From: Megasphaera sp.
Lineage (GTDB): Bacteria; Bacillota; Negativicutes; Veillonellales; Megasphaeraceae
Length of the DNA: 64,000 bases
Direction of reading: 5' to 3'
Assembly: GCA_050874545.1 (NCBI GenBank)
Contig: JBNMKW010000004.1
Location: 3,184-67,183 of the forward strand
Shown: piece by piece, positions 1 to 8,664 of the stretch
Position numbering within the stretch: position 1 is the stretch's first letter
How the letters are laid out: each line of letters begins with the position of its first letter
Program-made: the position numbers and the translations under genes
Notes under the pieces: generated by a model
What the model saw: only the letters and a program-made list of their open reading frames with translations
Told to the model about the DNA's origin: nothing
The model's database searches: none

Positions 1-1
1 G

Positions 2-304
2 TTGTCAGCTCAATTTGAGCTGTTGGCTAACCTGGCTGTCGTAACGAACGTCATCCCGTATATCCTTTGCGCTGCGGCATTGAAATCTATTTTGACTAAA
101 GAACATATTCCCAATGAAGTCTGTAACCGTAATTCGTCTATTTTCTTAGCCGGCGTATCTATTATTTATTGTATTTACGCCTTGACGACAACAGACGGTA
201 TTACCTTCTTCAGCGGCTGTCTGGCAGCTTTTGCCGGCTGGCTTATCTATATGGTTCGTTTCAATATTATGAAGCAGCCCATACTGCAGGAACAATCTAA
301 ATAA
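2..304 (+). CDS. potE: APC-family amino acid/polyamine antiporter, C-terminal part (5' truncated by window edge); PotE-like
   Basis: SAQFELLANLAVVTNVIPYIL resembles the PotE/CadB TM segment (QFNVLVNLAVVTNIIPYIL); hydrophobic helices up to the stop. Confidence 0.65.
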   Translation: MSAQFELLANLAVVTNVIPYILCAAALKSILTKEHIPNEVCNRNSSIFLAGVSIIYCIYALTTTDGITFFSGCLAAFAGWLIYMVRFNIMKQPILQEQSK

Positions 305-311
305 GTACATC

Positions 312-351
312 AAAAAGAGGCTTGTCTTAAACGACAAGCCTCTTACTTTTT
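312..351. terminator. Bidirectional intrinsic terminator between convergent transporters
   Basis: AAGAGGCTTGTC-ttaaac-GACAAGCCTCTT, perfect 12-bp stem with A- and T-rich flanks. Confidence 0.85.
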
Positions 352-364
352 AGTTATAGAAACG

Positions 365-1615
365 TTACCAAGCAGCCGGCAGCATACCGAAAATACTTAG
401 CACGGCATAGACACCAGCACTCAGAAATACAGCAACTACCAATCCTTGCATTATAGGATGCGCTGTCCAGCCGCATTTCCATAGGGGATGTTGGTCTCCA
501 TGCTTGCGAGCGCTGCGCAGCATGACAACAGGCAGTATCGACATGATAATGCCGCCAAAGGTTCCCGCGCAAAAAATAGCATTCACAAAGCTGACCAACC
601 CGCTGTATGCCAATATAAACGGCGGCACAGCTATAACAAGTAAGCAGCACGCACGGGTTTTTATATCCGTTTCAGACTTAAATCCCAACTGATCTACCAT
701 ATTGGTCAAAAAACTTTCTGCAATAGCCCAGTAGGACGTCAACATCGCACAAAAAGCGAATAAATTGACGACGATAAAGAATATCTGATGTCCTAAAGCC
801 TTGCCCCAAGCCAGAGAAGCAACTTCTGTAACGTCTTCTACTGGCAGCATCAAAAAAACGGCAAACGGTACAATAGCCAACATAACCAACGAAATCAAGA
901 AGGCTACGGCAATAGACGGCACGATTTGCTGCGGTCGATGGGACAGCCCTCGTGATAATTCTGGTACGATATACTGCACGGCATAGCAGAAAACCGTAAT
1001 GTTAAATACGGGAACCGCATATTTCCAGTTGGCATAGAGAATATCGGATACAGGGACATTTGCTGACAAAAAAGAGCCCCCTACCAATAAGACTAACAAA
1101 ACAACCATGCCGCTGCTCAGAAATTTTTCTGCTACTCCTGTCGCTTTCAGCCCCAGCCAGACAATGACTGTCGCCGGAACAGCAAACAGCAGGCTTCCCA
1201 TTTGAACAGAAATTCCAAATAACTCACTCAAAATTTTGCCGCAGCCGCTCGTATATGCAATTAAACTGCAAAACGATGTCGCTCCAACAGAAAAAAATAT
1301 GACCCATGAACCTGCCTTTCCTACATACCGCTGTGCCAGCCCCGAAAGCTGCATCGGCTGTTTCGTACGCATTGTCGTTTCTACGACATACAACATAGAA
1401 ACGAAAGAAAAGACGCCGGCTATCACAAGCCATGTCAATAATACAGGCCATCCGGCACTGCGGGACGCATAAGCCAACCCTAATACACCGGAGCCGATGG
1501 TAGACCCGACAACAAGCATCGTAGCCTCCCAAAACGTAAGACGATGAATTTTAAGTGCTGCTTCCTTTTTCGCAGCACCTACTGTGACTTTGTCCAACTC
1601 GTTCACATATTCCAT
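365..1615 (-). CDS. Aromatic/hydroxy amino acid permease (HAAAP, TyrP/Mtr/TnaB-like)
   Basis: 416 aa, about 11 hydrophobic segments; N-terminal LVVGSTIGSGVLGL motif typical of the family; SD-like GAAAGGGTG upstream. Confidence 0.8.
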   Translation of the reverse strand: MEYVNELDKVTVGAAKKEAALKIHRLTFWEATMLVVGSTIGSGVLGLAYASRSAGWPVLLTWLVIAGVFSFVSMLYVVETTMRTKQPMQLSGLAQRYVGKAGSWVIFFSVGATSFCSLIAYTSGCGKILSELFGISVQMGSLLFAVPATVIVWLGLKATGVAEKFLSSGMVVLLVLLVGGSFLSANVPVSDILYANWKYAVPVFNITVFCYAVQYIVPELSRGLSHRPQQIVPSIAVAFLISLVMLAIVPFAVFLMLPVEDVTEVASLAWGKALGHQIFFIVVNLFAFCAMLTSYWAIAESFLTNMVDQLGFKSETDIKTRACCLLVIAVPPFILAYSGLVSFVNAIFCAGTFGGIIMSILPVVMLRSARKHGDQHPLWKCGWTAHPIMQGLVVAVFLSAGVYAVLSIFGMLPAAW

Positions 1616-1668
1616 GATAAGAAAACACCCTTTCTGTGTAATATGTTACATGATGTCAGCATCGTCTT

Positions 1669-1697
1669 ATTATATACTAGTTGCCTTAAATGTGCAA
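1669..1697 (-). promoter_or_regulatory. Sigma70-type promoter of the permease
   Basis: Minus strand TTGCAC-N17-TATAAT. Confidence 0.65.
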
Positions 1698-1739
1698 TAA
1701 AGGCATTCTTTCCATTTCTGTCTACGGCTATATACACGT

Positions 1740-1790
1740 AAAAAAATGAATGGCCCAGCATACTGCATATATGCTGAGCCATTCATTTTT
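1740..1790 (-). terminator. Intrinsic terminator after the PLP lyase gene
   Basis: AAAAAATGAATGGCCCAGCATA...TATGCTGAGCCATTCATTTTT long stem with one mismatch. Confidence 0.85.
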
Positions 1791-1808
1791 ATATAGATAA
1801 TATTACTG

Positions 1809-3026
1809 TTACACGTGTTCCAAGGCTTGAGCCAAATCGGCAATAATGTCTTCTGCATCTTCCAAGCCCACAGACATTCGTATCATACCGTCTGTGATAC
1901 CAGCGGCTTCCCGCACTTCTTTCGGTATCATGGTATGTGTCATGGCAGCTGCCTGTTCTACCAATGTTTCTGTATCCCCTAAGCTGACAGCCAAGGTACA
2001 AAGTTTTAAGCTGTTGATAAACCGTTTGCCGGCTTCTAAACCGCCTTTGACATCAAAGGTCATCATACCGCCGCCGCCGCGCATTTGTCTCTTTGCCAAT
2101 TCATACTGCGGGTTGGACGGTAAAAAAGGATAACGGACAATATCAATCTTAGGATGCTGTTCCAAATACTGCGCTACTTTTAACGCATTTTCATTATATT
2201 GCTTCATGCGTACAGACAACGTCTTCAATCCCCGCGTTGCCAAAAATGCAACAAACGGCGACATAACAGCGCCAAAATGCATCAATGTACCCAAGCGGCA
2301 CTGCCGTAAAAATTCTTCGTCATTGGAAATAACAGCACCACCAAGCAAATCACCATGACCGCCGATATACTTCGTCACACTCTGTACGACCCAATCTGCA
2401 CCCAAATCCAGCGGTGTCGTATTATACGGCGTAGCAAAGGTATTATCAATGCCTACTTTTACGCCGTGAGCATGCGCGATAGCTACTACTTTTTCAATAT
2501 CTACCATAACCATCGTCGGATTAGCTGGCGATTCGATATAAATTAATTTAGTATTGGGTTTAATTTTTTCTTCTAATTCTTCCAAATGCAGCGGATCGAA
2601 CGTATCTACTTCTACGCCAAAACGCGGCAGAAAATCGCTGTTTACGTCTTCGGTGCCAGAATATTTAGCCTTACAGAAAATCGCATGGTCACCAGCACTG
2701 ACACTCATAAAAATCGCACCGGATACAGCCCCCATGCCAGACGCATACGACACGGCCCCTACCCCATGTTCTGCTTCTGCCAGCTTCTTTTCAAAATAAT
2801 CATTGCTGGGATTCGTAATCCGGCTATATGCAAAACTAGCTGCATAATCATCACAAGCCCGGACAGCATCATCCGTAGAATCAAAATAAAACGTAGATGT
2901 TTGGTAAATCGGCGGAATCAGTGAACCATACATATCCCGCGGTTCACCGCCATGGACATTCACCGTTGCCGGCCCATACTGACTCCGATCAAAATCCGGA
3001 TGCCTCATTTTGCTTAAACTCATCAT
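1809..3026 (-). CDS. PLP-dependent Cys/Met metabolism lyase, methionine gamma-lyase-like
   Basis: PPIYQTSTF, YSRITNPS, ESPANPT, DNTFATPY, SVTKYIGGHGD (PLP lysine), AVSLGDTETL; start moved to ATG 3026/3023 behind GGGGAG. Confidence 0.85.
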   Translation of the reverse strand: MMSLSKMRHPDFDRSQYGPATVNVHGGEPRDMYGSLIPPIYQTSTFYFDSTDDAVRACDDYAASFAYSRITNPSNDYFEKKLAEAEHGVGAVSYASGMGAVSGAIFMSVSAGDHAIFCKAKYSGTEDVNSDFLPRFGVEVDTFDPLHLEELEEKIKPNTKLIYIESPANPTMVMVDIEKVVAIAHAHGVKVGIDNTFATPYNTTPLDLGADWVVQSVTKYIGGHGDLLGGAVISNDEEFLRQCRLGTLMHFGAVMSPFVAFLATRGLKTLSVRMKQYNENALKVAQYLEQHPKIDIVRYPFLPSNPQYELAKRQMRGGGGMMTFDVKGGLEAGKRFINSLKLCTLAVSLGDTETLVEQAAAMTHTMIPKEVREAAGITDGMIRMSVGLEDAEDIIADLAQALEHV

Positions 3027-3046
3027 GCACTCCCCCCTATTGTACA

Positions 3047-3115
3047 TAGAACATAGTTCTAGAGCATCGCTCTAATTATGAATAAAATAATACGCTTTTC
3101 TTCCCAATATGTCAA
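3047..3115 (-). promoter_or_regulatory. Promoter of the lyase with two tandem palindromic operators downstream of the -10
   Basis: TTGACA (3115-3110) N17 TATTAT (3092-3087); TAGAAC-ATA-GTTCTA (3047-3061) and TAGAGC-ATC-GCTCTA (3060-3074). Confidence 0.75.
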
Positions 3116-3141
3116 TAGAAAAAAAGCGTTGTTTATATTTT

Positions 3142-3753
3142 TTAGGTTGTTGTTATAAAGGTGTGCAGCAGTCGCGGCATATATTTTTGGCACAAATACA
3201 CATGTTCATGTCTTGCTTTGGTTTGAGACCATTCATAAATAAGCATTCGTACCATCATAAATAAATAATCAGCCGTATCTTCAGCGGAAATAGAAACATC
3301 AAACGTTCCTTTCTGCTGTGCTTTTTCAATAAAGAGCAGCAGATTTTTATAAAAGGGAACGCCCATCCATGTATGTTCTGTCTCATAAATATATTCAAAG
3401 GTACCATAGACATGATAGGAAAATACTTCACCGGCATGTGCCCATATATCGCCATATGTATCTAAATATTGAAATATATAGGGATATGGATTTTTTACTT
3501 TTTCTTCCAAATTCTCTACGATATCCGGCTGTGCCGTTTTGGCAATACGCACACATATAGCCAGCAGCAATGCTTCTTTATTTTTAAAATGATAGTATAG
3601 TGACCCCATGGGCAGCTTTGCTTCTTCGCTAATGTCGCGCATAGATGTCATATCATATCCCTTTTCAGCAAATAATCGCTGTGCCGCTTTCATGATACGC
3701 TCTTTGTTTATTTCTGTTTGTTCACAGCGTCTTTTTATCTCTTTTTCCATCAT
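3142..3753 (-). CDS. TetR/AcrR family transcriptional regulator
   Basis: RIMKAAQRLFAEKGYDMTSMRDISEEAKLPMGSLYYHFKNKEALL HTH signature; GGAGG RBS. Confidence 0.92.
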   Translation of the reverse strand: MMEKEIKRRCEQTEINKERIMKAAQRLFAEKGYDMTSMRDISEEAKLPMGSLYYHFKNKEALLLAICVRIAKTAQPDIVENLEEKVKNPYPYIFQYLDTYGDIWAHAGEVFSYHVYGTFEYIYETEHTWMGVPFYKNLLLFIEKAQQKGTFDVSISAEDTADYLFMMVRMLIYEWSQTKARHEHVYLCQKYMPRLLHTFITTT

Positions 3754-3785
3754 GCAACCTCCCAAAGGGTATCTGCAGCATCTTT

Positions 3786-4640
3786 TTAAATGATTTTTCG
3801 TATGACCATGACAAGTATATTGCTGACAGCGATAGCCGCAACGAGCAGCACACTCACTGTCACAAAGGGCGTAATAAATACAAGTATATTATTTTGTGAA
3901 ATAGGCATGCATCGGAAAATGACCGTACTAAATACGTGCATATTACTGTTAAAAAGCATATATAAACTTCCCAGCCAAACGACAGCCATACCGACAATGC
4001 GAACGAGCTGAATCCCCCGTTCTTTCATCGGCAGTGTTTTAGCCGGAAAGAAATAAAACGCTATCACAGCTAACACAATGACCCCCATCGCCATAAACCC
4101 GAATCCAATAATGCCCAGCATGCCAATGACCAAACTCTGCGTAACATTGCCGGCTACGCTCGGAAATAAAAACATGCCCATCAAGGCGCACGGCAACGGA
4201 AAACTATATAATACAGGGTCTAAAAATTCAGAATACCAGCAGCTTCGCGTATGTGCCTGCCAATACGCCGTTGCCCAGGAAGCCAACGCCTGCAGCAGGA
4301 TGGTACCTGCCATCCAGCAAGTAAAGACTGTCACCCGCATCGCGTACTGCTGCCAAAACGGGTAGGACATCAATCCGTTTAAAATACCTATGGCTGCCAG
4401 CAAAACCACCAGACTGCCATAAAGAATGGAGCCGACAGGCGCATATACAGACTTATCATAACGTTTCATCTGCCGCAGCCGCATTGTCACAGGCATGCTC
4501 AACGATAAGACCAAAAATACAAGCAGCGACAACGGCGCAAAAAAACTTCGGTCTGAAGCAAATGCGCCAAAGGGAATGGGCAGTATCCAAATAGCCAGCT
4601 GTAATACAGCCCGTATATTAGGTTTTATACGCTGTATCAT
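3786..4640 (-). CDS. Hypothetical multi-pass membrane protein
   Basis: 284 aa with about 8 hydrophobic segments; AAGGAGG-like SD inside the upstream gene end; no recognised motif. Confidence 0.7.
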   Translation of the reverse strand: MIQRIKPNIRAVLQLAIWILPIPFGAFASDRSFFAPLSLLVFLVLSLSMPVTMRLRQMKRYDKSVYAPVGSILYGSLVVLLAAIGILNGLMSYPFWQQYAMRVTVFTCWMAGTILLQALASWATAYWQAHTRSCWYSEFLDPVLYSFPLPCALMGMFLFPSVAGNVTQSLVIGMLGIIGFGFMAMGVIVLAVIAFYFFPAKTLPMKERGIQLVRIVGMAVVWLGSLYMLFNSNMHVFSTVIFRCMPISQNNILVFITPFVTVSVLLVAAIAVSNILVMVIRKII

Positions 4641-4643
4641 CGT

Positions 4644-5066
4644 CTACCTTCTTTCTACGTGCCGCAGTCCCAAGCAGGATACGCCGTATGCCAACAACAT
4701 AATTACACAAACTTTGATATACATGCCAACGATAAAGAGAATGTCACGGCCAATGGTCGGCCATTCCCAGAATGACGAGTTTTTCCATATATCCCCCATA
4801 AACGCGCTAAACACGGCAAAAGCAACCGAAACAACAATCCACATAATGACAAAGGCTGTCCGGCTAATAGGTCGCTGCCGCGCGCCAAATGCTGCTTCTT
4901 TACAGCCCAAATACGCCCAAGGAATACATAAGGACAACACAGCATAGCTCACCAAGGCCACAACGGCACTGGAACCGTTATGTATCGTATACGCACCAAT
5001 GGGAATCGGGATAATAAAGAAACACATGCGCACGCATTGGCGCAAAATATCGCAACATCCACTCAT
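4644..5066 (-). CDS. Hypothetical membrane protein, apparent paralogue of the downstream gene's N-terminal half
   Basis: 140 aa, about 4 TM; GGAGG RBS; shares the I-x-PIP-x-GA...VLSL-x-x-P pattern. Confidence 0.7.
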   Translation of the reverse strand: MSGCCDILRQCVRMCFFIIPIPIGAYTIHNGSSAVVALVSYAVLSLCIPWAYLGCKEAAFGARQRPISRTAFVIMWIVVSVAFAVFSAFMGDIWKNSSFWEWPTIGRDILFIVGMYIKVCVIMLLAYGVSCLGLRHVERR

Positions 5067-5235
5067 GAAGCTACCTCCAAACTCGTTAGATACTCTTATT
5101 CTAATAGATAAAGTATATCATAGTTTTTCATCCATGGATAGGAGAATACCGCATGATGTCTATTGCGAAAAGCACAGGTCTTGTGTACAATATTTATAGA
5201 TAATCATTAGCATTGTACAGAAAGGTATACACATT

Positions 5236-6495
5236 ATGGCAAAAAATTTTCAATCACTCGGCATTTCTCCGCAAATTACAGACATGCTGTATAAACAAGG
5301 CATTCATGAACCGACTGCCGTTCAGTCACAGGCAATTCCGGCACTATTCAAAGGCCGCGATATCCTGGCACAGGCACAAACCGGCACAGGCAAAACGTAT
5401 GCCTTCCTCTTACCATCCCTGCAGCAAATCAAGACTGACGTTCATATGGAACAAGTATTAATTGTCGCACCTACACGGGAACTAGCAAAACAAATCGCTG
5501 ACGTAGCCGGCACATTGGCTCCTGCCCTGCAGGTCGATGTACTAAGCCTGATTGGCGGTAAAACTATTGAAAACCAACTGCAAAAACTGCAGCGCCATCC
5601 GCAGGTCATTATCGGTACGCCGGGCCGTCTTCTCGACCACTGCCGCCGCAATTCGTTGGATCTGCGCGGTGTCAAACGCGTCATCGTCGATGAGGCAGAC
5701 CAAATGCTGCAGGCCGGTTTTCTAGAAGATGTCGATACATTAATCGGCATGACGCCGAAACGCCGTCAAATCCTCTTTTTCTCTGCAACCGTACCGGACA
5801 AAATCAAAGGATTAGCTAAAAAACACATGCAAAATCCGTTGGTTTTACATATTTTAGAAGGTAACACGATTGCGCTGGAACAAATTGAACAGCGCATTTA
5901 TATGATACGTGAAGAACAAAAATTTCCCAAACTCTGCCAAATGCTCCGCGATATGAATCCGTATTTGGCCATTGTCTTCTGCAACACCAAAGAACGCACT
6001 TCCCAGCTGGCAGGCAAATTGATTGCCGAAGGCTTTAACATCGGCGAACTGCATGGAGATATGTCCCAAGGACGCCGCACGCAGGTTCTCCGCGATTTTA
6101 CCAAGGCCAAAACACAAATTCTGGTCGCAACGGATATTGCAGCCCGCGGCATTGATATTGAAGGGATTACCCATGTCTTCAACTACGACGTACCTCATGA
6201 CGTAGATTATTACATTCATCGCATCGGCCGTACAGGCCGTGCCGGTCATGAAGGTCTCTCCATTATGTTTGCCACTTCAGCCGATGAAAACTGGGTGCGC
6301 CGCATCGAACATAATATCCAAGCTACCATCACCAAGTATACGGCAAATGGCCAAGTAAAAGTGAAAGCCACTGCAAAGCCGCCCAAGAAAAAGAAAAAAT
6401 TTAAGGATAAACTCCCTGCCAGTACGTATCAGGCAACTAAAAGCAAACGTCATAAAACACGGCATAAAGGTGGAGATAATCGCCGCCGCCGTTAA
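5236..6495 (+). CDS. DEAD-box ATP-dependent RNA helicase
   Basis: Q motif, AQTGTGKT, PTRELA, TPGRL, DEAD, SAT, ARGID, YIHRIGRTGRAG; basic C-terminal tail. Confidence 0.95.
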   Translation: MAKNFQSLGISPQITDMLYKQGIHEPTAVQSQAIPALFKGRDILAQAQTGTGKTYAFLLPSLQQIKTDVHMEQVLIVAPTRELAKQIADVAGTLAPALQVDVLSLIGGKTIENQLQKLQRHPQVIIGTPGRLLDHCRRNSLDLRGVKRVIVDEADQMLQAGFLEDVDTLIGMTPKRRQILFFSATVPDKIKGLAKKHMQNPLVLHILEGNTIALEQIEQRIYMIREEQKFPKLCQMLRDMNPYLAIVFCNTKERTSQLAGKLIAEGFNIGELHGDMSQGRRTQVLRDFTKAKTQILVATDIAARGIDIEGITHVFNYDVPHDVDYYIHRIGRTGRAGHEGLSIMFATSADENWVRRIEHNIQATITKYTANGQVKVKATAKPPKKKKKFKDKLPASTYQATKSKRHKTRHKGGDNRRRR

Positions 6496-6516
6496 TTCCG
6501 ACAGGAGGGATTCTCT

Positions 6517-7062
6517 ATGAAGAAACAAGCTGTACTTCTCTTTGCCGTACTCACGATGCTTGTAAGTGCCGGCTGTACGCCGACGCCCACTACACAGCCC
6601 AAAGAACCGCCGGCTTCGCAGCAACAACCGTCATCGGCAGAACAAACCCAACGCAATGCACAAAAACAGCAGCATGTCGGTGCCGTCGTTTCGTTAGGCG
6701 ATACGATGACAGACTGGGAACAGGCATTAGGACATCCATTTTCTCAAGGAGATTCCTTAAAAGTATATAAAAACGGAACGTATCAAGTTGTCTTTGAAAA
6801 TCATAAAGCCGTAACGATTACGTTTATAAACAAAAACGGCAAAAACACGATACCGAATGACTTGCTTCCAAAAGATGGAAAAAAGCAGTCCTCATCTGCC
6901 AAAGATATCCGCGGTATGACGATGACCGTAGAAAAATGGCACAGTAATGCGTTAGCTGCTGCTATTCCGCAAACAAAGGGAATGTATACCATCATGAAAC
7001 ATAAAAAGGGAGATACGTACGACAATATCGTTGTCGATTGTTCACCTAATTTGAAAAAGTAA
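6517..7062 (+). CDS. Hypothetical lipoprotein
   Basis: Signal peptide with lipobox (VSAG-C), Gln/Pro-rich linker; GGAGG RBS. Confidence 0.75.
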   Translation: MKKQAVLLFAVLTMLVSAGCTPTPTTQPKEPPASQQQPSSAEQTQRNAQKQQHVGAVVSLGDTMTDWEQALGHPFSQGDSLKVYKNGTYQVVFENHKAVTITFINKNGKNTIPNDLLPKDGKKQSSSAKDIRGMTMTVEKWHSNALAAAIPQTKGMYTIMKHKKGDTYDNIVVDCSPNLKK

Positions 7063-7069
7063 TAGGACA

Positions 7070-7124
7070 AAAACTGGGTCTGTCACTTCGAAGTAAAAAC
7101 GCTTCGTGTGACAGACCCTTTTTT
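7070..7124. terminator. Bidirectional terminator between convergent genes
   Basis: GGGTCTGTCAC...GTGACAGACCC stem followed by a T run. Confidence 0.8.
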
Positions 7125-7881
7125 ATAAGACCGCCTGTAATAATTCTTGTGTATACATGCTCTTCGGATGGCGCAATACATCTTCAGTCTTGCCCTCTTC
7201 CACAATGTTGCCTTCATGCATAATCAAAAGACGCTGGCAAAATTGTTGTGCCAATGCTATATTGTGGCAAATGAAAAGACACGCCATGCCCTGACTGGCA
7301 TTAAACCGTTGTAAAAGAGATACAATCCGCTGCTGCGTAATGGTATCCAGTGCACTAGTTACTTCATCACAAATCAAAAGAGCCGGCGATACCATCAATG
7401 CCCGAGCTATCGCGGCCCGCTGGCACTGGCCGCCGCTGACTTCATGCGGATATTTCTGCAGGATGTCAGCGTCCAAGCCGCATTGCTGTATCATCTGCTG
7501 TACACGTTGTTCCCGTGCCGCTTTTTTGATTTCTTGATTTCTCAGACTTTCAGCAATACTGTATCCCAAGGTATGACGCGGGTCAAATGACTCCCGCGGT
7601 GCTTGAAATACCATCTGTATCTGCTGATAAACCGACTGCAGTGCTTTTCCCTTCAGACACGTAATATTGTGATGCTGTACATACAGCTCCCCTTCTGTCA
7701 CATCTGTAAGACGGACTATGGCGTGCGCTAATGTACTTTTCCCAGCACCGGACCGGCCAACAACGCCTACGATTTCTCCTGGATACACACAACAAGTTAC
7801 ATCATTCAATATATGTTTGGGCCTATGATTCCCCTGTACTATAGTCTTAGTAATATGACGCAATTCGATAAGTGGCTGCAT
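7123..7881 (-). CDS. Peptide/nickel ABC transporter ATP-binding subunit (OppF/NikE-like)
   Basis: GRSGAGKS Walker A, VSGGQCQR signature, ICDEVTSALD Walker B. Confidence 0.9.
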   Translation of the reverse strand: MQPLIELRHITKTIVQGNHRPKHILNDVTCCVYPGEIVGVVGRSGAGKSTLAHAIVRLTDVTEGELYVQHHNITCLKGKALQSVYQQIQMVFQAPRESFDPRHTLGYSIAESLRNQEIKKAAREQRVQQMIQQCGLDADILQKYPHEVSGGQCQRAAIARALMVSPALLICDEVTSALDTITQQRIVSLLQRFNASQGMACLFICHNIALAQQFCQRLLIMHEGNIVEEGKTEDVLRHPKSMYTQELLQAVL

Positions 7882-7884
7882 ATA

Positions 7885-8664
7885 CTATTTCCTCCATGTT
7901 GGCATGGCTTGAATCAACGCTTTTGTATCGTCTTGACGCGGCTCTTCCAGTATCTGCCGTACCGTCCCTTGTTCTACACACTGTCCCTGATGCAGTACAA
8001 GCACGGTATCGGCCGCTTTGCGTATGACAACCATATCATGCGTAACTAATACAACTGCCGTACCGTTTTCCTGCTGCAAAGAACGCAGCGTCTGCAATAC
8101 CTCTTGCTGCGCGCAAACATCCAAAGCGCTGGTCGGTTCATCAGCCAGCAATACCTTCGGCTGCAGGAGCATTGCCAAAACAATCGCCGCCCGCTGCAGC
8201 ATACCGCCAGACAGCATAAAGGGATAGCTGTGCCACACGGCTTCACCGTCCGGCAACGCTACTTTTTCAAATAATGGCAATGTTTTCTGTTTTGTCTGTC
8301 TTTCTGTCCATCCTTGATGTACTGCCAGTGCTTCACTAATTTGGCTGCCAATCGTCCGCATCGGAGCAAATGTCATCGTGCCGTCTTGAAAAATCATCGC
8401 GATGGCTGTACCATACAAGGTCTGGCGTTCTTTTGCCGTTCTGTTCAACAAGGATTGTCCCAAGAGCCAAATCTCTCCCTGCGATACCCAGCCTGCTGGC
8501 CCCAACAGGTGCATAGCCCCTTTGAGGAGCGTACTCTTGCCGCTGCCGGATGCCCCAATAATACCGACTGTTTCTCCTGGATGCACGGCAAACGATACAT
8601 CGTTGACAGCGATGTGACTGCCATATTGAATCGATACGTGCCGATACTGCAGTACAGCCTCCAT
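7885..8664 (-). CDS. Peptide/nickel ABC transporter ATP-binding subunit (OppD/NikD-like)
   Basis: [26 protein letters not shown]. Confidence 0.9.
   Translation of the reverse strand: MEAVLQYRHVSIQYGSHIAVNDVSFAVHPGETVGIIGASGSGKSTLLKGAMHLLGPAGWVSQGEIWLLGQSLLNRTAKERQTLYGTAIAMIFQDGTMTFAPMRTIGSQISEALAVHQGWTERQTKQKTLPLFEKVALPDGEAVWHSYPFMLSGGMLQRAAIVLAMLLQPKVLLADEPTSALDVCAQQEVLQTLRSLQQENGTAVVLVTHDMVVIRKAADTVLVLHQGQCVEQGTVRQILEEPRQDDTKALIQAMPTWRK

Follow-up and report, generated by a model that had tools for sequence, protein, structure and literature searches.

Which amino acid is broken down by an enzyme that resembles methionine gamma-lyase (MGL) without its hallmark cysteine, and do the importer and repressor genes beside it serve the same task? 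The question arises near the start of a 64,000-nucleotide stretch of gut Megasphaera sp. DNA (contig JBNMKW010000004.1, positions 3,184 to 67,183; hereafter the window), in which a TetR-family regulator, a pyridoxal 5'-phosphate (PLP)-dependent lyase and an amino-acid permease are encoded by co-directional open reading frames (ORFs) on the minus strand. The window comes from contig 4 of genome G000, and its closest public records are Megasphaera metagenome-assembled genomes (MAGs). An earlier sequence-only reading had taken the three genes as one catabolic module for an amino acid other than methionine. With modest confidence, we favour a different arrangement: an intact PLP-dependent breakdown enzyme of a sister subfamily of MGL, forming a single-gene unit under TetR control, with the permease as a separate unit.

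The lyase and its active site

The features of the lyase on which the argument turns are as follows.

1809..3026, minus strand: PLP-dependent lyase, 405 amino acids; the ORF is open from 3047, and the probable ATG at 3026 follows the ribosome-binding site (RBS) GGGGGGAG
2889-2927 and 2643-2693, minus strand: the quoted lyase motifs GSLIPPIYQTSTF and GDHAIFCKAKYSGTEDV, respectively
2652..2663, minus strand: YSGT codons; Tyr129 is kept, Ser130 stands for Gly115 and Gly131 for Cys116 of MGL
2370..2372, minus strand: codon of the PLP-binding lysine, Lys226, within QSVTKY (2367-2384); invariant in the YSG and canonical sets
2277..2285, minus strand: Leu255-Met256-His257, replacing Lys240-Asp241-Met/Ile of canonical MGL; conserved across the clade
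1962-1991 and 1935-1943, minus strand: the further lyase motifs AVSLGDTETL and MTH, respectively

The lyase belongs to Pfam family PF01053 (Cys_Met_Meta_PP), matching the profile over its full length (E 3e-138, 461 bits, profile positions 2-381 of 381) and retaining the PLP lysine and the cofactor-binding residues. The best specific model is NCBIfam TIGR01328 (methionine gamma-lyase), against which it scores 453.3 bits, 97 bits under the curated equivalog cut-off of 549.7 bits; canonical Megasphaera MGLs reach 596-621 bits. The HMMER alignment with Citrobacter freundii MGL runs end to end without gaps (E 1e-116), the Pseudomonas putida MGL structure 1gc0 matches at 1.4e-97, and the closest solved structures by sequence are all MGLs (393 bits, vs about 302 for cystathionine gamma-lyase). 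These matches to solved MGLs settle the fold. In the gap-free alignment AKYSGT falls on AIYGCT and VVQSVTKY on VVHSVTKY. This bears out the sequence-only reading on the glycine at the Cys116 position and on the location of its quoted motifs, the YSGT codons and QSVTKY. A second change had been overlooked: the MGL-specific GLKDMTGA, which holds Lys240 and Asp241, is GTLMHFGA in the lyase. The two signatures of a canonical MGL, Tyr114-Gly115-Cys116 and Lys240-Asp241, are thus Tyr-Ser-Gly and Leu255-Met256 here.

Much of the remaining active site is unchanged. Tyr74, Arg76, Ser103-Gly104, Tyr129, Asn176, Asp201, Ser223, Thr225, Lys226, Ser355-Leu356 and Arg390 are invariant both in the clade of enzymes with Tyr-Ser-Gly (the YSG clade) and in canonical MGLs. 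Among them are the Schiff-base lysine (Lys226), the tyrosine with stacking and acid roles (Tyr129), two residues from the partner subunit (Tyr74 and Arg76) and the carboxylate-binding arginine (Arg390). Judged by these residues, the PLP cofactor and carboxylate machinery of the lyase is intact. As the sequence-only reading held, the enzyme is by its sequence not a canonical MGL, because it falls under the TIGR01328 cut-off and lacks the whole Cys116-Lys240-Asp241 triad.

Comparison with known enzymes places it near, and apart from, two groups. With canonical MGL (EC 4.4.1.11; P. putida MdeA, C. freundii MegL, E. histolytica MGL1) it shares the PLP and carboxylate residues, the tyrosine, VSLGD.ETL and MTH, and in relatives a LysR of a related subfamily adjoins the gene. 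It differs in having YSG for YGC, Leu-Met followed by His for Lys240-Asp241 and EQAAAMTH for HPASMTH; HS.TKY is moreover QSVTKY in the Megasphaera lyase. The cystathionine gamma-lyase/synthase group (YGGT; human and yeast cystathionine gamma-lyase (CGL), S. aureus CGL/homocysteine desulfhydrase, E. coli MetB) has the same fold and family and likewise a glycine at the MGL-Cys position. Its members, however, match at about 265-302 bits, vs 393 for MGL, and have AESLGG or SLGGVES where the lyase has AVSLGDTE; in the lyase a serine precedes the glycine.

The sequence-only reading had argued from the missing cysteine to a different substrate. In E. histolytica MGL1 this cysteine forms part of a proton-relay network with a Tyr and a Lys, and activity is kept after its replacement (C110S 77%, C110G 40%; PMC5501846). 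The cysteine change by itself is therefore a weak argument for another substrate, and that step does not hold. YGC is reported for Arabidopsis MGL (PMC10248269), and a methioninase screen took YGC together with KD as the signature of true enzymes, with 22.4% of its model matches lacking it (PMC11568061).

The YSG clade and its relation to methionine gamma-lyase

A scan of species genomes for the lyase returned 40 loci, 38 of them with a full-length lyase, and it is to these that counts out of 38 refer. KAKYSGTE is present in 36/38 homologues and YSG in 37/38 (L047 has KTLYSGTH and L045 has YSAV). KAKYSGTE and Leu-Met-His are both kept in Megasphaera (85-99% identity), in MAGs labelled Oscillospiraceae, Dysosmobacter or Lachnospiraceae (about 77%) and, farther out, in one Peptococcaceae MAG (64%) and one Terriglobales MAG (57%). 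The Gln of QSVTKY is narrower in distribution, most non-Megasphaera members having His. On this pattern of conservation, YSG and Leu-Met-His are characters of a clade, not decay.

Trees were built from the YSG homologues and representatives of 50%-identity clusters. The YSG clade is monophyletic together with one sister representative, P0244 (YSS...IHF), with support of 96-97 in the Shimodaira-Hasegawa-like approximate likelihood ratio test (SH-aLRT). The clade with YGC and KD, which includes the canonical Megasphaera MGLs, is separate (SH-aLRT 94-99), and the lyase falls outside it. In an approximately unbiased (AU) test (LG+G4, 40 rows), joining the YSG and canonical clades was not rejected and even scored better (p-AU 0.83), so that the YSG clade is probably best described as a sister subfamily of MGL. 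These trees agree with the sequence-only reading in setting the lyase outside the canonical clade, yet leave a sister relation standing. The databases name the clade differently: NCBI uses 'trans-sulfuration enzyme family protein' and the automatic label at JGI is methionine-gamma-lyase.

Canonical MGL (TLYGCTFAL, 596-621 bits) is found in 18/39 genomes of the family and the YSG enzyme in at least 8. Four genomes (G005, G016, G031 and G032) hold both, and this coexistence suggests distinct roles; the window lyase is about 46-49% identical to the canonical Megasphaera MGLs. Joint, conserved replacement of the triad, taken with the coexistence of the paralogues, makes a stronger argument for a different activity than the cysteine change, and still an indirect one.

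The same evidence bears on a possible account that we consider somewhat unlikely, namely that the lyase is a working methionine gamma-lyase isozyme that tolerates the loss of its cysteine, has methionine as its physiological substrate and supplies 2-oxobutyrate for making propionyl-CoA and valerate. The activity of the C110G and C110S mutants speaks for it, as do the retained general-acid Tyr and MGL-type VSLGD.ETL block, the MGL models and structures that are the best matches, a genome that contains no other MGL, and a LysR in related loci that resembles the one beside canonical Megasphaera MGL. It has to contend with the joint replacement, across phyla, of three of the four MGL-defining specificity residues (Cys116, Lys240 and Asp241; PMC11568061), with the four related genomes that keep the YSG enzyme alongside a canonical MGL, and with a score 97 bits under the equivalog cut-off of NCBI, where the name is merely that of the trans-sulfuration family.

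Control of the lyase and the standing of the permease

Whether the three genes act together was assessed from the surrounding features, listed here from the upstream end of the minus strand.

4644-5066, minus strand: membrane-protein gene memb140 (140 amino acids), ORF
3786-4640, minus strand: membrane-protein gene memb284 (284 amino acids), ORF
305..3785, minus strand: TetR-lyase-permease block, ~3.4 kb, bounded by the core gene memb284 on one side and by the convergent PotE-like antiporter gene on the other
3142..3753, minus strand: TetR-family regulator; probable ATG at 3753 after RBS GGGAGG, ORF open from TTG 3765
3087..3115, minus strand: lyase promoter-like site, TTGACA-17-TATTAT, 11/12 matches; conserved in L010-L013 and L015
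3047..3074, no strand assigned: two adjoining 6-3-6 palindromes, putative TetR operator, TAGAGC-N3-GCTCTA and TAGAAC-N3-GTTCTA, both lying after the -10 box and before the RBS
1744..1788, minus strand: intrinsic terminator with a 20-22-bp stem and a T run; it starts 21 nt past the lyase stop
1669..1696, minus strand: permease promoter-like site, TGCACA-16-TATAAT; conserved in L010-L015
1620..1668, minus strand: permease leader, conserved, GACGATGCTGACATCATGTAACATATT..., without the TAGAGC palindrome
365..1615, minus strand: polytopic amino-acid permease of divergent Trp_Tyr_perm/HAAAP type (PF03222)
315..344, no strand assigned: bidirectional terminator hairpin between the permease and PotE-like genes

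The regulator has an N-terminal helix-turn-helix domain of the TetR type (PF00440, TetR_N; E 5.3e-18, 65 bits), and its orthologues at >=73% identity are confined to the six genomes that hold the lyase cluster (6/6 co-occurrence). Every TetR-bearing Megasphaera locus keeps the lyase promoter and two to three copies of the palindrome; M. hexanoica and AM44, whose lyase loci contain no TetR, lack the palindromes in front of the lyase gene. A search allowing up to 2 mismatches did not find the TAGAGC palindrome near the permease, TetR or memb140 genes. This strict co-occurrence, together with the conserved operator-like palindromes on the lyase promoter, argues that TetR and the lyase belong together and that, in the six-genome lineage, the lyase is very probably under TetR control, with the palindromes as the presumed binding sites. 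The design recalls TetR/tetO and QacR in its N-terminal TetR helix-turn-helix and in its two to three adjoining 15-bp palindromes just downstream of the target -10 box; unlike those systems, its putative target is a co-directional downstream gene for a breakdown enzyme, not a divergent efflux pump. An Rfam scan of positions 1-8000 at E up to 1 gave chance-level matches only, with no S-box or T-box leader.

The nearest other relatives of this TetR (50-56% identity; G006 and G023, L110 3-2115 and L113 8-2103) are each flanked by a BrnQ branched-chain amino-acid transporter gene immediately upstream and by dnaE downstream, which faintly suggests that the ligand is related to amino acids. An origin of TetR as part of the memb140-memb284 unit was considered and rejected: memb284 is a core gene, present in 36/39 Megasphaeraceae genomes, and TetR occurs only with the lyase.

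The permease is the sole PF03222 gene in the genome (6.8e-33, 114.8 bits vs a gathering score of 22), and a rough hydropathy scan shows some 10-12 hydrophobic peaks, partly overlapping. It resembles HAAAP permeases (TC 2.A.42: Mtr, TnaB, TyrP, SdaC, TdcC, CyuP/YhaO) in its whole-length Trp_Tyr_perm match, its size of about 415 amino acids and its polytopic build, but differs in also matching the Aa_trans family and in lying far under the NCBIfam aromatic and TyrP cut-offs (TIGR00837, 97 vs 350 bits; TyrP, 56 vs 482 bits). We found no characterised close relative. With 97 bits against a 350-bit aromatic cut-off, the family name does not predict the substrate, which weakens the sequence-only argument that a HAAAP permease speaks against methionine.

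Several features separate the permease from the lyase. The terminator between them folds at -32.7 kcal/mol (z -9.2), and L011 has a different hairpin and T run in its place. Beyond it lie the permease promoter and a leader (GAC.ATGCTGACATCA.GTAACATATT) that also follows the -10 box of 75%-identical permease genes located elsewhere in the genome in 9-10 other Megasphaera. In G002, G003, G008 and G019, genomes that are 99-100% complete and carry an unlinked permease, a search with the MGL model at E up to 1e-100 returned nothing. No lyase adjoins the permease orthologues of Acidaminococcus (65%) or Phascolarctobacterium (59%), nor does one adjoin a 75% homologue. Since the terminator, the separate promoter and the leader common to unlinked orthologues give the permease an inherited regulation of its own, and since its distribution is largely independent of the lyase, it is a loosely associated neighbour and not a dedicated partner.

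Two observations concern the permease in its own right. A ~27-nt leader element, GACATGCTGACATCAGGTAACATATT, stands right after the permease -10 box both in the window (1620-1668) and in L094, L096, L097, L099-L101 and L103; it is conserved between Megasphaera species whose permease coding sequences share only 75% identity, and it may be the binding site of some regulator. In Phascolarctobacterium faecium (L052/L053 5001-7128) an FmdA/AmdA-type amidase gene lies 13 nt downstream of the permease orthologue (59%).

The minus-strand order is memb140, memb284, TetR, lyase and permease, and the PotE-like antiporter gene near the window start converges on the permease gene. In G034, G024, G030 and G017 (L120, L122, L124 and L125) a terminator and then the PotE-like gene come within 60-80 bp of the end of memb284. 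The gap is filled by TetR, lyase and permease solely in G000, G015, G028, G029, G031 and G032. The three genes are thus one inserted block, co-travelling in a six-genome Megasphaera lineage. GC content is 34% at 3001-3500, in the TetR gene region, vs about 45% in the flanking genes, and the lyase is 77-79% identical to Oscillospiraceae proteins, high across two different classes; together these values suggest that the block was partly acquired by horizontal transfer. The memb140/memb284 pair (roughly 3 and 6 hydrophobic segments) adjoins a DEAD-box helicase gene in every locus examined, and neither protein has a Pfam or NCBIfam match.

Of the single module first proposed, the TetR-lyase half is thus upheld by co-occurrence and the palindromes, and the permease half is not; permease and lyase are adjacent only within the six-genome lineage, so that outside it they are not conserved neighbours, an outcome that the sequence-only reading had itself named as a refutation. 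A dedicated module of importer, lyase and repressor for one non-methionine amino acid (an S-substituted cysteine, cystathionine or a non-protein amino acid) seems to us improbable. It draws on the shared insertion in the same six genomes, on the remodelled active-site triad and on the recurrence of a lyase-plus-importer design elsewhere, where clade lyases stand beside importers of other families. It is opposed by the strong terminator and separate promoter between the two genes, by the missing TAGAGC palindrome before the permease, by a leader shared with the unlinked orthologues in G002, G003, G008 and G019, which have no MGL-like gene, and by the Acidaminococcus and Phascolarctobacterium orthologues that have no lyase neighbour. 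Co-travel of the block is the best remaining argument for a functional link between permease and lyase; shared descent alone would look identical.

Reaction, substrate and genomic contexts elsewhere

In the reading we favour, of a TetR-controlled sister-subfamily enzyme, the lyase would act on an amino acid and split off a leaving group at its gamma (or beta) carbon. The polar Cys116-Lys240-Asp241 network that MGL has beside the leaving group is swapped for Gly, Leu and Met, with Ser before and His after, and specificity has probably shifted from that of canonical MGL. Most likely, the amino acid would be taken up from outside, resemble methionine or homocysteine, and be broken down to 2-oxobutyrate and ammonia with release of a thiol or another leaving group. 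Methionine itself is, tentatively, the foremost candidate substrate; a compound of another kind is a real possibility, and homocysteine or cysteine appears rather unlikely. The gene would form a single-gene transcription unit whose near-consensus promoter is overlapped by tandem palindromes, probably bound by TetR, and its expression would be ligand-induced through that regulator. The adjacent permease, a separately regulated unit, may supply the substrate without being dedicated to the lyase.

Four points weigh against this reading. The reaction and substrate are read from sequence comparison, and our literature search turned up no paper on YSG-clade enzymes, and thus no assayed member, nor any on MGL in Megasphaera or Oscillibacter. 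The backbone of the tree is star-like, 29/74 branches being open. Only 32 nt separate the memb284 stop from TetR, an interval that contains no terminator and no detected promoter, so TetR may be read through from the memb140-memb284 membrane-protein unit. Finally, G000 has no canonical MGL, holding only the YSG enzyme and a MetY-like gene beside metA, and the YSG enzyme could therefore simply be its methionine lyase.

The contexts of YSG lyases elsewhere fit an inducible breakdown enzyme. A LysR gene lies directly upstream in 28/38 loci and a LIVCS/BrnQ importer nearby in 10/38. These LysRs share 33-34% full-length identity with the LysR next to canonical Megasphaera MGL, and such relatedness hints at related effectors. 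For two canonical MGL representatives, P0247 and P0252, the contigs were too short or otherwise uninformative about gene context. At the locus of P0244 (L126 768-7653) a LysR gene adjoins a compact run of lyase, RidA, AbgT/DcuC transporter and two M20 peptidases, an arrangement that looks like breakdown of an imported amino-acid conjugate; RidA fits a reaction releasing an enamine. A biosynthetic or salvage trans-sulfuration enzyme (cystathionine gamma-synthase, beta-lyase or sulfhydrylase type) is very improbable, for although PF01053 includes such types and their models score 300-375 bits on the lyase, these scores lie far under the models' cut-offs and under the MGL scores, the contexts are regulator with importer, or RidA with peptidases, and not met-biosynthesis genes, S-box and T-box leaders were not found in the Rfam scan of 1-8000, and G000 already has a MetA and MetY-like route and so no biosynthetic need for the lyase.

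The YSG clade is abundant, one Oscillospiraceae sequence occurring on 436 contigs, and it is found beside different importers (HAAAP, LIVCS, AbgT/DcuC) and regulators (TetR, LysR). It is conceivable, if speculative, that enzymes with YSG and Leu-Met-His form a widespread lyase family of gut Firmicutes with a substrate new to the fold, for example a gamma- or beta-substituted amino acid, or a conjugate of one, that comes from the diet or the host, and in that event lyases of the clade could have been recruited repeatedly next to different importers and regulators. The family would then be a hidden source of gut thiol, H2S or 2-oxobutyrate distinct from MGL. Surveys of gut methanethiol and H2S count MGL-annotated genes, and the clade is labelled MGL by JGI, named generically at NCBI and discarded by motif screens (PMC11568061); at stake is whether its genes are counted as methionine degraders or as a new activity. 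The natural swap of Cys, Lys and Asp also informs the role of this network in MGL, which is being developed as an anticancer agent, and the putative TetR-operator pair offers a simple route to the inducer and hence to the substrate.

Two further associations were seen around YSG lyases. The YSG lyase of M. hexanoica, AM44-1BH and several Oscillospiraceae has beside it another, divergent MGL-like paralogue paired with a LIVCS/BrnQ transporter (L014 3293-5996 and L026 3416-5968, also L016, L020, L030, L042 and L044). This paralogue is 35-38% identical to the window lyase, falls under every NCBIfam cut-off, and carries Glu at the Cys position (YGE[AT]FYF), YSATKYLGGHDD and TLAG..TTLTYPP.ASHR. In many Oscillospiraceae loci (L128/L129 6228-7695; L027 3260-3955) the next gene, ~5-16 nt beyond the YSG lyase gene, encodes a stand-alone protein with a B3_4 domain, the fold of the PheRS editing domain, and a 254-amino-acid protein without a family is encoded there too.

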